The notes under the pieces are model-generated. The model did not search any database. It was given only the letters and a program-made list of their open reading frames with translations, and was not told the origin of the DNA. A stretch of DNA of 64,000 nucleotides from Escherichia coli 042 (lineage in GTDB: Bacteria > Pseudomonadota > Gammaproteobacteria > Enterobacterales > Enterobacteriaceae): the NCBI RefSeq assembly GCF_000027125.1, contig NC_017626.1; one strand, given 5' to 3'. Shown here piece by piece: positions 21,094 through 27,600 of the stretch (positions within the stretch are counted from its first letter, which is position 1; every line of letters starts with the position of its first letter). The translations under genes were made by a program, and so were the position numbers.

Positions 21094-21378
21094 ATGCCTT
21101 TAGCAGCCAAACTCACCGACAAAGGCACCCAGCACGACGGTTATTACGAGACCGTCATCACCGCCGGGTCATCCACCGTCTTTATCGATGGTCTTCCCGC
21201 AGCCCGTCAGGGAGATCCGCTGACGCCGCATGCTAAACCGAAGCATCCCCCTCATCCCCGTAAAATCGCCAGAGGTTCTTCAACCGTCTTTATTGACGGC
21301 CTGCCCGCCGCCAGAAGCGGTGATGCTGTTGACTGCGGCGGCGTGGTTATTGGTGGCGGTACGGTAAATATAGGCTGA
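21094..21378 (+). CDS. PAAR-repeat protein (T6SS spike-tip)
   Basis: 94 aa; duplicated SSTVFIDGLPAAR(Q/S)GD motif typical of PAAR; strong AGGAGG RBS; 18 nt upstream of vgrG. Confidence 0.75.
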   Translation: MPLAAKLTDKGTQHDGYYETVITAGSSTVFIDGLPAARQGDPLTPHAKPKHPPHPRKIARGSSTVFIDGLPAARSGDAVDCGGVVIGGGTVNIG

Positions 21379-21396: not shown

Positions 21397-23802
21397 ATGT
21401 CCTTAAAAGGTCTTCGCTTTACGCTGGAGGTTGACGGCCAGGAGCCGGACACCTTTGCAGTGGTGAATTTCAGGTTAATCCAGAACCAGTCATATCCGTT
21501 TGTGATGAGTGTGGATGTTGCCAGCGACTCTTTTATGCAGACGGCGGAGATGCTGCTGGAGAAGAAGGCGACACTGACCATCTGGCAGGGCGCAGTGGCG
21601 CAGCGTTATGTCACCGGCGTGGTGGCGGGTTTTGGCATGCAGGAGAATAACGGCTGGCAGATGCGTTATCACCTGCGTATTGAGCCGCCGTTATGGCGGT
21701 GCGGGCTGCGGCAGAACTTTCGTATCTTCCAGCAGCAGGATATCCGGACGATATCGGCCACGTTACTGAACGAGAACGGCGTCACGGAGTGGACGCCGCT
21801 GTTTTATGAGGACCATCCGGCGCGGGAGTTCTGTGTCCAGTACGGGGAGTCGGACCTGGCGTTTCTGTCCCGGCTGTGGGCGGAGGAGGGTCTTTTCTTC
21901 TTTGAGCGGTTTGCGGCGGACAGTCCGGAGCAGAAGCTGACGCTGTGCGACGATGTGGCGGGGCTGTCACAGGCGGGGGAGTTTCCGTTTAACCCGGACA
22001 CATCGGCAGGTGCGGAGACGGAGTGTGTCAGTATGTTCCGTTATGAGGCGCATGTCCGCCCGTCATCGGTGCAGAGCCAGGATTACACCTTTAAGGTGCC
22101 GGACTGGCCGGGGATGTATGAGCAGCAGGGTGAGAACCTGAACGGACAGCTGGAGCAGTATGAGATATTTGATTATCCGGGAAGGTACAAGGATGAACAG
22201 CACGGCAAGGATTTCACGCTGTACCAGATGGAGAGCCTGCGCAGTGATGCGGAAAAGGCCACAGGGCAGAGTAATTCGCCGAAGCTGTGGCCGGGAACGC
22301 GGTTTATGCTGACGGGGCATCCGCAGAAGATGCTGAACCGTGAATGGCAGGTGGTACAGAGCATACTGTCAGGAAACCAGCCGCAGGCGCTGCACGGCAG
22401 CCAGGGAAAGGGAACCACGCTGGGCAATCAGTTAGAGGTGATACCGGCGGACCGGACGTGGCGTCCACGGCTGCAAAACAAACCGAAGGTGGACGGGCCA
22501 CAGAGCGCCATCGTCACCGGTCCTGCGGGAGAGGAAATCTTCTGCGATGAACATGGACGGGTACGGGTGAAGTTCCACTGGGACCGTTATCACGGGATGA
22601 CGGAGGCGAGTTCATGCTGGGTGCGGGTATCGCAGGCGTGGGCGGGGCCGGGGTTCGGTAACCTGGCGATACCACGGGTGGGTCAGGAGGTGATAGTGGA
22701 CTTCCTGAACGGCGACCCGGACCAGCCGATAATCATGGGGCGGACGTACCATGAGGACAACCGTTCGCCGGGCGACCTGCCGGGAACGAAGACGCAGATG
22801 ACCATCCGGTCAAAAACCTATAAAGGAAGCGGATTTAACGAGCTGCGGTTTGAAGACGCCACCAGTAATGAGCAGGTGTATATCCATGCCCAGAAGAACA
22901 TGGATACGGAGGTGCTCAACGACCGGACAACGGATGTGAAACATGACCATACGGAAACCATCGGGAACGACCAGAAGATAACGGTGGTGAAGGGGCAGAC
23001 GGTTCAGGTCGGGACCAGAAAAGAAGGGGGCCACGACCAGAGTATCACGGTGGCGAACGACCGGTGCATCACGGTACGTAATGACCAGACGCTGCAGGTG
23101 ACGAATGACCGGACGGTGAGCGTGAGTAATGATGACGGCCTGTACGTCAGAAATGACCGTAAAGTGACGGTGGAAGGGAAGCAGGAGCATAAGACGACGG
23201 GGAACCATATCAGTCTGGTGGAGGGAAAGCACAGCCTGGTGGTGAAGGGGGACCTGGCGAGGAAGGTGAGTGGCGCGCTGGGGATAAAGGTGGACGGGGA
23301 TATCGTGCTGGAGAGCAGCAGCCGGATAAGCCTGAAGGTGAGTGGCTCGTTTGTGGTCATCCATTCAGGGGGCGTGGACATCGTCGGGCCGAAAATCAAT
23401 CTCAATAGCGGCGGTAGTCCGGGGACGCCGGTGCCGGCGCTGCAACCGGCGGTGCTGAAGACACTGGGGGATGAGAAGAGTGGTGATGGCAGTGATTCCG
23501 GAGAAGAAAATGAAGACTCTGGAGGGAACTGCGTGACCGGAAGTGGTGGTGATGATCGAGGTGACGATGAGGATGAACCTGAAAAATATACTCTCCAGTT
23601 CCATTTTACAGACGATGACGGGATACCGTATTCAGAAACCCGCTACATTGCCTTCTTTGAGGATGGCACGCAGACCCGCGGAGAAACGGATGAAGAGGGG
23701 TATACAGAGCGTTTTTTTGTATCTAGCAAACATGAAATTAAAGTGAAGTTGTTATTTGCGAATGATGATTTTCTCTCAATGGAAGGACACTATGGACGAT
23801 AA
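21397..23802 (+). CDS. vgrG: Type VI secretion spike protein VgrG with acidic linker and C-terminal extension domain
   Basis: 801 aa; N-terminus MSLKGLRFTLEVDGQEPDTFAVVNFRL…IWQG…RIFQ matches VgrG gp27/gp5 core; C-terminal repeat-rich beta-helix; Gly/Asp/Glu-rich linker then ~70 aa terminal domain. Confidence 0.85.
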   Translation: MSLKGLRFTLEVDGQEPDTFAVVNFRLIQNQSYPFVMSVDVASDSFMQTAEMLLEKKATLTIWQGAVAQRYVTGVVAGFGMQENNGWQMRYHLRIEPPLWRCGLRQNFRIFQQQDIRTISATLLNENGVTEWTPLFYEDHPAREFCVQYGESDLAFLSRLWAEEGLFFFERFAADSPEQKLTLCDDVAGLSQAGEFPFNPDTSAGAETECVSMFRYEAHVRPSSVQSQDYTFKVPDWPGMYEQQGENLNGQLEQYEIFDYPGRYKDEQHGKDFTLYQMESLRSDAEKATGQSNSPKLWPGTRFMLTGHPQKMLNREWQVVQSILSGNQPQALHGSQGKGTTLGNQLEVIPADRTWRPRLQNKPKVDGPQSAIVTGPAGEEIFCDEHGRVRVKFHWDRYHGMTEASSCWVRVSQAWAGPGFGNLAIPRVGQEVIVDFLNGDPDQPIIMGRTYHEDNRSPGDLPGTKTQMTIRSKTYKGSGFNELRFEDATSNEQVYIHAQKNMDTEVLNDRTTDVKHDHTETIGNDQKITVVKGQTVQVGTRKEGGHDQSITVANDRCITVRNDQTLQVTNDRTVSVSNDDGLYVRNDRKVTVEGKQEHKTTGNHISLVEGKHSLVVKGDLARKVSGALGIKVDGDIVLESSSRISLKVSGSFVVIHSGGVDIVGPKINLNSGGSPGTPVPALQPAVLKTLGDEKSGDGSDSGEENEDSGGNCVTGSGGDDRGDDEDEPEKYTLQFHFTDDDGIPYSETRYIAFFEDGTQTRGETDEEGYTERFFVSSKHEIKVKLLFANDDFLSMEGHYGR

Positions 23803-24583
23803 TAATCAAACTTCTGGACAACCAAAGCCAGAGCCAGAAGAATGTGTGAAAGAGCAAAAAATAACTGATCATTTTAAAATAATGATTGATAAGGCTCGTA
23901 AGGCACAAAAGTTGGTTTTGATAAAAAGAGCAGATGATCTTTTGAGATGGGGAGCACAGGAGGAATATGATTTCAGTAAGATCTTTGGTGTTAAAGGAAA
24001 TAAGGAGGTTAATATAAGAAAATATGGACATAATACAGGTAGGCGCATGAATGCTAGATTTCTTATGATGGATGGTGTGAGAAGATTAATGATTATAGCT
24101 AATGATTTAACAATGAGCAGTTTTATAAATTATACAGGTTGTAATGAATTTGCAGCATTCGTCAGCCCAAGTAAGGATATGCCCTATATAATTAACATAG
24201 GCGCAAAATTTGAGTATAGAGATGGCAAAAAAAATCCAGTAACGGGAAAGGATTCTCATGTTGCTACTTTATGTCATGAAATGTCTCATATTCAGTGGTA
24301 TTATGGGGATAATAAAAAAGGTGGTATGTGGTCACAGGATTATACAACTACTGATAAATATTCAACGTGCAAAGAGGATGAAGTTTCATATGACGAACAT
24401 ATCCGTATTGCAACTAAACTGATCTCTAAACAAAAAGATCAAATATTCGAGAATGCATATAACATAGAAAGATATTTTGAAATAAGATTAATTGAAAGTG
24501 AGATAGACTCGATTAATGATGAAATATTAAGCAATTCAGTTAAGAAAAAAATAGCGGAATTAGAAAAAGCACTTCTCCATTAA
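23792..24583 (+). CDS. Candidate T6SS cargo effector with HExxH zinc-metallopeptidase-like motif
   Basis: 264 aa from ATG at 23792, overlapping the vgrG stop by 11 nt; GGAAGGA RBS; HEMSH at 24275-24289; ~30% GC by eye; no family recognised. Confidence 0.5.
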   Translation: MDDNNQTSGQPKPEPEECVKEQKITDHFKIMIDKARKAQKLVLIKRADDLLRWGAQEEYDFSKIFGVKGNKEVNIRKYGHNTGRRMNARFLMMDGVRRLMIIANDLTMSSFINYTGCNEFAAFVSPSKDMPYIINIGAKFEYRDGKKNPVTGKDSHVATLCHEMSHIQWYYGDNKKGGMWSQDYTTTDKYSTCKEDEVSYDEHIRIATKLISKQKDQIFENAYNIERYFEIRLIESEIDSINDEILSNSVKKKIAELEKALLH

Positions 24584-24606
24584 CTAATAAGTCGAGAAAT
24601 ATATTA

Positions 24607-25428
24607 ATGCTGCAAGCTATAAAAAAAATCATAATAATGACAATCGTAAATATTATATTTTTCTATTCCTTTCAATCGACTGCGGATGAAATGGTTTTAA
24701 TAAAAAAATACGGGTTTGGGCTTGAGAGAGATATCAAAGGAAGGCCATTAATTTATCCTATCGAAAATTATGATGAGTGTAAGAAAAAATGCAATCATAT
24801 GAATTATATAGCGGATGTCAATGCTCAATTAGCTATGAGTAAAAAAAATAACAGGATTTTTGCTAACATAACCTTTACTAACAATAGCTCTACCACGTAT
24901 TTTTTTTCTAAATATTACCTACCTATGAAAGTAAAAGATGGAAAAGGAGATGAATATGATGCGATATGCAAAAAACCATTCAGAATCAACTCTGGGAATA
25001 TCACGTTGGACTACTTAGGTGGTTCATGTCCTTTTGAAATTAATACGAATCCTGAACGGTGGAATACTATTAAACCAGGTCGTAGTTTTTTGTTGAGTAT
25101 AACCTTAAATGATATGTATGCCTTTATACCAGGAGATAATTATTATTTTATAAAATCATCTGGCTATAAATTTGTTAATGACAAGTGGTTTACACTCAAA
25201 TCAATCAATAATATTTTTCTTTATTTTTTAAATTTAAAAATTAATTGTGCTGATGATTTTTTTGATATTAATAATTTTACTACATGTGATAATTTGTTAT
25301 TAGATGAAAAAAAACACTTTTTTATTAATCAGTTATGGGCAATTGAGGATGAAAAAAATTCTATTTACGTCACCCCTGATGAAATTTCTATAAGTATAGA
25401 CGGCGATAACTTAAAGTTGCCATATTAG
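24607..25428 (+). CDS. Candidate cognate immunity protein (periplasmic, signal-peptide-bearing)
   Basis: 273 aa, AT-rich; N-terminal hydrophobic segment IIIMTIVNIIFFYSFQSTA; several Cys; directly downstream of the effector candidate. Confidence 0.45.
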   Translation: MLQAIKKIIIMTIVNIIFFYSFQSTADEMVLIKKYGFGLERDIKGRPLIYPIENYDECKKKCNHMNYIADVNAQLAMSKKNNRIFANITFTNNSSTTYFFSKYYLPMKVKDGKGDEYDAICKKPFRINSGNITLDYLGGSCPFEINTNPERWNTIKPGRSFLLSITLNDMYAFIPGDNYYFIKSSGYKFVNDKWFTLKSINNIFLYFLNLKINCADDFFDINNFTTCDNLLLDEKKHFFINQLWAIEDEKNSIYVTPDEISISIDGDNLKLPY

Positions 25429-25447
25429 GAATCTGTGAAAGAACAAG

Positions 25448-25936
25448 GTGCGCCGCTTTTTTGTACTAAATAATTCGCATTTTAGTCACGGCAGAGAAGA
25501 AATCCATCTTCATATTGTTTGCGATGTCCCTGATGAACTTATTGATTTCACGTTTGAATGGAAAGGTCAGAAGAAATTATGCGTGGCAGTCTCCTTTTGG
25601 TCAATAATAGCAGAACAAAAGAAAGAGCCAGAAATGACGGTCAGATATTATATCAGTTCTGCTGATTTAACCGCAAAAAAGTTCGCCACAGCGATACGAA
25701 ATCACTGGCACGTGGAGAATAAGCTGCACTGGCGTCTGGACGTGGTAATGAACGAAGACGACTGCAAAATAAGAAGAGGAAACGCCGCAGAATTATTTTC
25801 AGGGATACGGCACATCGCTATTAATATTTTAACGAATGATAAGGTATTCAAGGCAGGGTTAAGACGCAAGATGCGAAAAGCAGCTATGGACAGAGACTAC
25901 CTCGCGTCAGTCCTTGCGGGGAGCGGGCTTTCGTAA
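25448..25936 (+). pseudogene. ISAs1-family (H-repeat-associated) transposase, C-terminal fragment
   Basis: C-terminal ~140 aa resemble H-repeat-associated proteins ([30 protein letters not shown]…); N-terminal two-thirds absent. Confidence 0.7.
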
Positions 25937-26044: not shown

Positions 26045-26605
26045 ATGAAAAAAAGCAAAAAAATTAAAACAATGAACCATCAAAATAATAGCGGGATACA
26101 AAATCAACCAGACTATCACATCGAAATAGAAAGAAAAAATATGGTAAGATTGCTTGATGAACGTATTGATAAAGTTTACGGTTCATTGCTAGGACCAATG
26201 AAAAAGAAAAATATAGATAAAATACGTCATTTTACACTTGATGTAATGGTGTTTATTCTTGACACGAACCCTCGTGTTTGTAATAAATTATCCAGGGAAA
26301 TAATATCTTTAGCGCAAAATACCTTCATTGAAAAAAACGTTAATTTTTCAACTTTTAATAATGAACAGCATAGAATAAGGGAGTATATGAATGAAGGTGG
26401 TGGAATACGATGGTTTACATGGGATAACCCCGAGATATCTTTTGTTCGTGCATCTTTTGGCCTTTTTGTCAAAATGGAAACAAAAGGTGATCATGAACAT
26501 ACACTAAGTGACACATTTCTTCAGATTGTTGAGTGTGTTAATTTAAATATAGGACTTATTGCAAAAGATGAACTGGTAAAAATCATCAATAAACACTTTA
26601 TGTAA
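26045..26605 (+). CDS. Hypothetical protein (AT-rich accessory ORF, no recognisable domain)
   Basis: 186 aa ORF with GAGG RBS; low GC; no TM segments. Confidence 0.4.
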   Translation: MKKSKKIKTMNHQNNSGIQNQPDYHIEIERKNMVRLLDERIDKVYGSLLGPMKKKNIDKIRHFTLDVMVFILDTNPRVCNKLSREIISLAQNTFIEKNVNFSTFNNEQHRIREYMNEGGGIRWFTWDNPEISFVRASFGLFVKMETKGDHEHTLSDTFLQIVECVNLNIGLIAKDELVKIINKHFM

Positions 26606-26964: not shown

Positions 26965-27600
26965 ATGAATAAAGGTAATAGATTACAACAGTTAGAAGAT
27001 GCGTGTCGTGATATTATTAAAATTAACATGTGGTATGAACTCCCCGATTATGTATTTTTTTCAATATCTGACACCATCGATGGGACGAGTGATGAATTCG
27101 CAATAAATGTGTATAAAAATATCGATAAAAGTCTTCTTGAAATATTATTGCATCCATCTGTTTTACTGTCAGTTGTTGAGTCCTTACAAAGTAATACTAT
27201 AGCTGAGTATATCGTGAAATTGTCTGAAATAGAGATGAATTATGACGACTTGCTAATATCGGATGTTAAATCATGTCTTTTTATCAACTATGGATTCAAT
27301 AACAGTGAATCGGTTGCGCTATTTAATAAGATTTACCGCGAATTAAAAGATATTGTAAAATCATCAAGAGTACATATAGATCATGAGAAAGATATTTTTG
27401 ATGGCCTTAATCAAATCTTGGCTTTTTCCGATAATAATAAACATGAGTATTTTTTATATATAAAGGCATATTGGCTCAGTTTATACTTTTGTGAAATTTC
27501 ACAGAACGTGAGAGAAAGAGATAAGTTGTCATTTTATTATAATGAATTTTCTGTCCGATTTCCTAATGTTGTCCTATATCCGTCATGCTACAAATTGTAA
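26965..27600 (+). CDS. Hypothetical protein (AT-rich accessory ORF, no recognisable domain)
   Basis: 211 aa ORF with AAGG RBS; low GC. Confidence 0.4.
   Translation: MNKGNRLQQLEDACRDIIKINMWYELPDYVFFSISDTIDGTSDEFAINVYKNIDKSLLEILLHPSVLLSVVESLQSNTIAEYIVKLSEIEMNYDDLLISDVKSCLFINYGFNNSESVALFNKIYRELKDIVKSSRVHIDHEKDIFDGLNQILAFSDNNKHEYFLYIKAYWLSLYFCEISQNVRERDKLSFYYNEFSVRFPNVVLYPSCYKL

Follow-up and report, generated by a model that had tools for sequence, protein, structure and literature searches.

The open reading frame (ORF) at positions 24607–25428 of the window, by which we mean the whole 64,000-nt stretch of Escherichia coli 042 DNA analysed here (NC_017626.1), very probably encodes an exported, disulfide-bonded immunity protein against its own type VI secretion system (T6SS) toxin, an M35 zinc protease. 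The immunity reading is well supported, in view of the conserved linkage between the two genes, the toxin/antidote pair of E. coli PAR and the periplasm-only killing by the BCE049 effector, but it is known as a kind, and a homologue has already been tested. The family to which the ORF belongs is unannotated, with neither a Pfam nor an NCBIfam model.

The T6SS island and its M35 effector

The ORF lies in a small T6SS island between the core genes ansP-yncG and yddH-nhoA of the E. coli chromosome, a site that in K-12 is occupied by rhsE. The genes follow the order PAAR, VgrG, effector, ORF, and are all co-oriented (Table 1). The 3' end of vgrG overlaps the start of the effector gene by 11 nt, and only a 23-nt gap separates the effector stop codon from the ORF start on the same strand. 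The ORF is thus directly downstream of the HExxH protein, as the first-pass annotation had stated. The stretch from 23700 to 25500 was 100% identical to strain EcPF15 and others, and the island stretch was carried by 644 of 5426 complete E. coli genomes (~12%).

Table 1. Features of the T6SS island and of the ORF, with their positions in the window.
Feature	Position	Strand	Basis
PAAR spike-tip protein, first gene of the island	21094..21378	+	NCBIfam NF033420 T6SS_PAAR_dom, E 1.4e-46; RefSeq concurs
VgrG spike protein, 801 aa	21397..23802	+	TIGR03361, E 5e-180
VgrG C-terminal segment, aa 727-793, probable effector-docking domain; start of the AT-rich cargo module	23575..23775	+	Identity to other VgrG C-termini; GC fall
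M35/aspzincin-like zinc metallopeptidase effector, 263 aa	23792..24583	+	RefSeq name 'peptidase M35'
HEMSH zinc-binding and catalytic motif, effector residues 162-166	24275..24289	+	Read from sequence
Effector Asp183 in GGMxxxD, probable third zinc ligand (aspzincin GTxD equivalent)	24338..24340	+	Invariant in effector alignment
Immunity-family ORF, 273 aa	24607..25428	+	ORF list, RefSeq, family searches
Predicted Sec (SPase I) signal peptide, ORF residues 1-26, STA/DE junction	24607..24684	+	Rule-based call and family pattern
ORF beta-sandwich core (predicted), about residues 70-190, with conserved C121-C141; resembles M35 pro-domain or BsuPI inhibitor	24814..25176	+	
ISAs1 transposase fragment, distal end of the cargo module	25448..25936	+	NF033564, profile positions 201-314 only

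Within the last ~70 codons of vgrG, the GC content falls from ~0.6 to about 0.3–0.35 and stays low through the ORF; this drop marks a horizontally exchanged cargo module. Residues 727–793 of VgrG share 47–54% identity with the C-termini of VgrGs that are otherwise ~25% identical and that carry the same effector family. This C-terminal segment of ~65 aa also occurs at two other loci (L007, 8819–9493; L011, 1–435), and it ends the split 'DUF2345' fragment in Citrobacter and in E. coli PAR. It may be this segment, rather than DUF2345 as such, that recognises the M35 effector family.

At the distal end of the module, the ISAs1 (H-repeat) fragment abuts the immunity gene and is annotated in RefSeq as a pseudogene without its N-terminus. 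In one database protein (P0084), an immunity-family member is fused by read-through to the same transposase tail. Between this fragment and yddH are two AT-rich ORFs, 26045–26605 (186 aa) and 26965–27600 (211 aa), which RefSeq lists as hypothetical and for which neither NCBIfam nor PADLOC gave a match; both may be left over from earlier cargo modules.

In the effector alignment, H162, E163 and H166 were invariant, as were G177, G178, M179 and D183; the homologues read GGMGTDD where AsaP1 reads AGTDD. The predicted fold of the effector matched M35 enzymes, and the top structural matches included the catalytic-only structures 1g12 and 1eb6. With its HExxH motif, a downstream Asp ligand motif and an M35 catalytic fold, the effector belongs to the M35/aspzincin peptidases. 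No publication linking aspzincins with type VI secretion was found in a literature search.

We also observed a short form of the effector (~195–200 aa) that has no internal insertion, at L019, L026, L028 and L025 (7229–7594). Here a DD motif comes shortly after HE(F/M)SH, reading YTDD in L019 and Nissle and NSDD in L026. The short form is closer to the canonical aspzincins and is still paired with the immunity family of the ORF.

Linkage, divergence and relatives of the pair

Profile HMMs were built for both the effector and the ORF families. An exhaustive HMMER search gathered 88 representatives of clusters at 50% identity for the ORF family; about 60 of these clusters are full-length (250–320 aa) and share 22–39% identity with the ORF. 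The named members and the AFDB matches all come from Enterobacteriaceae, namely Escherichia, Salmonella, Citrobacter, Enterobacter, Buttiauxella, Superficieibacter, Phytobacter, Trabulsiella and Cronobacter. The ORF itself gave no significant Pfam, NCBIfam or PADLOC match, and a Pfam scan of 41 aligned family members found zero matches. Searching the PDB sequences with either the ORF or the family profile (the latter up to E 10) gave no match either, the pro-domain of AsaP1 included. The 41-sequence alignment was too diverse for deriving a search pattern, and a scan of the species genomes with the family motif [DGN]NIxLDYLG[GRH] found no relative.

When loci were entered from the effector, a member of the ORF family was the next ORF downstream in 9/9 cases (3/3 in the species-genome scan and 6/6 in contig look-ups), spanning Buttiauxella, Superficieibacter, Escherichia sp., Salmonella, Enterobacter sp., Citrobacter and one metagenome contig. 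When they were entered from the ORF family, an effector homologue lay directly upstream in five of six, the exception being a 1.8-kb contig. Adjacency, co-orientation and linkage across lineages, as in a T6SS effector-immunity pair, were therefore all found.

The identities of effector and ORF co-varied over 78 pairwise comparisons (Spearman 0.52), and in 91% of these the ORF was the more diverged partner. An immunity protein usually diverges more than its effector. In complete E. coli genomes, copies with at least 80% coverage numbered 631 for the ORF versus 514 for the effector, and copies of the ORF family without an effector occurred in Nissle 1917 and in Citrobacter. Displaced and orphan copies are typical of immunity genes.

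The arrangements at some of these loci deserve description. In Nissle 1917 (L028, NZ_CM189243, 4216–6797), the chromosomal site of the window island is taken by another M35 effector, a short-form one of 200 aa, which is paired with an immunity-family gene of its own; this pair is followed by a copy of the window-type immunity gene at 98.7% DNA identity, whose start is lost and whose C-terminus is frameshifted. This looks like cassette displacement that left an orphan. Two tandem effector-immunity cassettes were seen inside the main T6SS cluster of Citrobacter sp. (L007, 6249–11279) and of E. coli PAR (L015, 33273–39429), the second sitting behind a VgrG remnant. Citrobacter also has an extra immunity copy without an effector (L007, 7916–8734).

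The pair in E. coli PAR supplies the direct precedent. There, M35^PAR (AKO63_2955) was lethal to E. coli, and the toxicity was relieved when the next gene (AKO63_2956) was co-expressed (PMC10673891). We mapped these tags to RS15260 and RS15265 at L015 by gene order, not from a tag table. The window effector shares 30% identity with RS15260 (E 2e-32), and the window ORF shares 31% identity with RS15265 over 136 aa (E 2e-20); RS15265 also matched the HMM of the ORF family at E 1e-84. The order VgrG, effector, immunity is common to both loci. However, the two pairs have different surroundings. That of PAR belongs to the main T6SS cluster at metV and follows a VgrG interrupted by a frameshift, with the DUF2345 part encoded as a product of its own; the window pair occupies an orphan PAAR-vgrG island flanked by yncG and yddH. 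The window VgrG is also of another type, its close relatives having Gp5_trimer_C and no DUF2345 in precomputed Pfam assignments. Since the PAR and window proteins are only ~30% identical, cross-protection is not expected. Together with the conserved linkage to the effector, this toxic pair rescued by co-expression agrees with the earlier suggestion, made from the DNA alone, that the ORF is an immunity protein.

The second precedent concerns the compartment. The M35 peptidase of 'module 5' in E. coli BCE049 had an inhibitory effect on E. coli only if a PelB leader was attached (PMC7904677). The chromosomal island is common to BCE049 and the window, and a single residue, N242D, separates the two effectors. 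The first-pass annotation had reasoned that a periplasmic immunity protein would place the target of the effector in the envelope, and the requirement for the leader supports this. Unlike in PAR, only the effector was tested in that study (PMC7904677).

In the BCE049 assembly (L017, 21062–21833), the effector is intact apart from N242D, but three single-base indels, all in A/T homopolymer runs, divide the downstream immunity gene into two ORFs. Either this is an assembly error, or BCE049 has the effector without a working immunity gene. Homopolymer frameshifts affect the ORF gene in both BCE049 and Nissle 1917; unless they are assembly errors, not every strain maintains an intact copy.

A further comparison is offered by the Tpe/Tpi family, which comprises the C-terminal domain of VgrG2b with PA0261, Tpe1 with Tpi1, and SARI_02727 with SARI_02726 (PMC6899460, PMC12992299). 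As proposed for the window, a T6SS metallopeptidase acting in the prey periplasm is set against a downstream-encoded, exported, cysteine-containing immunity protein. Immunity in that family requires export and, for PA0261, also DsbA (PMC6899460). However, SARI_02726 is a 154-aa lipoprotein with Pfam DUF7480 and the NCBIfam model for T6SS immunity lipoproteins, whereas the window ORF, at 273 aa, is about twice that size, has no lipobox and matched neither model. We considered the ORF as a member of the PA0261/Tpi family (DUF7480, PF24295) and rejected this, there being no match in the ORF or in the 41 members, and the size, the lipobox and the partner family being different. Nor did the partner effector prove to be a member of the VgrG2b C-terminal family.

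Predicted export signal and cysteine pairs of the ORF

The ORF list and RefSeq gave the identical frame and ATG start for the ORF, which RefSeq names hypothetical protein WP_001544554. Its N-terminus has lysines at positions 6 and 7, a hydrophobic core at residues 8–22 (best 15-residue Kyte-Doolittle mean, 2.35), and then S24-T25-A26 followed by D27, which obeys the −3/−1 rule for signal peptidase I. The signal-peptide call was made by rule-based inspection and family conservation. Over the whole 273 aa, we found no lipobox, the first cysteine being at residue 58, and no second hydrophobic segment. The ORF was accordingly rejected as a lipoprotein, and the export signal it carries led us to reject a cytoplasmic chaperone or adaptor.

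These features are shared by the family, which argues against a chance occurrence. A strongly hydrophobic N-terminus was seen in 36 of the 41 aligned members; among the remaining five, at least P0016 and P0044 start within the mature region, which suggests truncated gene calls. A later membrane segment was present in none of the 41, and a lipobox-like string in two. Most members end the N-terminal region with A followed by (S/D/G)E, ~8 residues ahead of a conserved KYGYG motif. The recurrence of this junction at a fixed distance to KYGYG suggests a conserved processing site. The N-terminal hydrophobic segment that the first-pass annotation had quoted (residues 8–26) is confirmed, and its reading as an export signal fits both the −3/−1 rule and the conservation.

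All six cysteines of the ORF (58, 62, 121, 141, 214 and 227) are in the mature part, and two pairs of them are conserved, in line with the earlier mention of several cysteines. C121 and C141 were both present in 37 of 41 members and both absent in four, never occurring singly; C214 and C227 were both present in 35 members and both absent in three. Such joint presence and absence is what one would expect if both pairs form structural disulfides. C58 and C62 are limited to the ORF and its closest Salmonella relative. The conserved export signal and the strict pairing of C121 with C141 also favour the disulfide-bonded, periplasmic character proposed at first reading.

It is conceivable, though improbable, that the ORF product is an immunity protein which is not soluble but stays in the inner membrane through a signal-anchor helix that escapes cleavage. 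The hydrophobic core is long (15 residues), cleavage was called by rule, and anchored immunity proteins exist in the analogous Tpe/Tpi system, Tpi1 of Acinetobacter baylyi being reported as one (PMC6899460). Yet the small-x-small sequence S-T-A directly follows the core, and the junction of A with (S/D/G)E keeps a constant distance to KYGYG in most members. We therefore prefer a soluble, exported immunity protein.

Predicted fold and proposed mode of inhibition

An AF2 model of the ORF, built with the family alignment as input, had a pLDDT of 85.9 and a pTM of 0.76. It predicted a signal helix, a beta-rich core at residues 35–190, two helices and a terminal hairpin. The best structural match of the modelled beta-sandwich was the non-catalytic part of the M35 zymogen AsaP1 (PDB 2X3A), which we take to be the inhibitory pro-domain, and the next was the BsuPI protease inhibitor (PDB 3ISY). 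The match was assigned to the non-catalytic part because 1g12 and 1eb6 were in the same structure library and yet were absent from the ORF match list. The 123 aligned residues also approximate the remainder of the 293 resolved AsaP1 residues after a catalytic domain of ~170 residues. In the model, the beta-sandwich could thus be superposed on an M35 zymogen pro-domain.

A Foldseek search against AFDB50 pointed the same way: the first matches outside the family included precursors named 'Lysine-specific metallo-endopeptidase domain-containing' and one BsuPI-domain protein, alongside several uncharacterised proteins of ~165–210 aa, at E about 1e-8 to 1e-7. At the level of sequence, no homology of the ORF family to pro-domains or to BsuPI was detected (PDB profile search at E up to 10; Pfam BsuPI), and the link to pro-domains comes entirely from predicted structure.

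The ORF differs from AsaP1 (PDB 2X3A) and BsuPI (PDB 3ISY, PMC3901451) in several respects. It would be a separate exported polypeptide, not an N-terminal extension of a protease, and it adds a conserved N-terminal KYGYG segment and a C-terminal helical/hairpin region of ~80 residues. Besides the lack of detectable sequence similarity, a zymogen-like docking geometry was not reproduced when the two partners were modelled as one chain. For that model, AF2 was given a single chain in which a 30-residue linker joined the mature ORF to the effector, together with an alignment of 15 paired rows and further unpaired rows from both families. The fused model reached a pLDDT of 82.6 and a pTM of only 0.60. 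It did not superpose on the whole AsaP1 zymogen, 175 of the 293 zymogen residues being aligned, which speaks neither for nor against a pro-domain-like geometry. We would give close to an even chance that the ORF acts as a pro-domain-in-trans inhibitor of the effector. That the family descends from, or converged on, the inhibitory pro-domain of M35 zymogens seems to us possible but slightly short of even.

The pro-domains of M35 proteases are generally credited with a chaperone function in folding in addition to inhibition. A pro-domain-like fold could thus also suit a folding helper or secretion accessory, that is, a pro-domain-like chaperone in trans or a loading adaptor for the active toxin, and tight linkage to the effector would suit such an accessory gene equally well. 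We consider this very unlikely. The conserved Sec signal and T6SS cargo loaded on VgrG in the cytoplasm would put the two proteins in different compartments of the producer, and copies without an effector persist. Moreover, the downstream gene in PAR removed toxicity on co-expression and was not required for it (PMC10673891), and the BCE049 effector was toxic in the periplasm with no ORF gene supplied (PMC7904677). That the ORF is a second exported toxin, or an unrelated envelope protein travelling with the cargo module, is hardly credible: no annotated family matches it and its function is read by analogy, but it is strictly adjacent to one effector family across genera, diverges faster than the effector, has an inhibitor-like predicted fold and has a homologue in PAR with a rescue phenotype.

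Under the immunity reading, the ORF product would carry a Sec signal peptide that directs its export, with probable cleavage behind Ala26. It would fold in the periplasm, with putative disulfides C121-C141, C214-C227 and, probably, a lineage-specific C58-C62 bond. An effector injected into the periplasm by the type VI system of a sister cell would then be bound by the immunity protein, which would block its protease activity. Because the modelled beta-sandwich resembles both the M35 zymogen pro-domain and the BsuPI inhibitor, the most likely mode would be occlusion of the active-site cleft, with the pro-domain supplied in trans. In this scheme we infer the cleavage site, the disulfide pairing, the direct binding and the pro-domain-like geometry of the ORF.

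Such a pair might have arisen if an ancestral secreted pro-M35 protease was split in two. The catalytic domain would have gained an N-terminal VgrG-docking region and become T6SS cargo, and the pro-domain would have become a separately exported periplasmic protein that inhibits the incoming toxin in trans.

In hundreds of E. coli genomes, those of uropathogenic, avian and probiotic lineages among them, the ORF carries the label 'hypothetical'. Its assignment as an immunity gene completes a common E. coli effector module and defines a family missing from Pfam and NCBIfam. The new lead is the pro-domain/BsuPI-like fold predicted for the ORF. The origins of immunity proteins are poorly understood, and a pro-domain turned into a trans-acting antidote, if true, would be a clear example, giving an immunity protein a concrete origin and a ready-made mechanism of inhibition. 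A specific inhibitor would also help in the search for the periplasmic substrate of the toxin.
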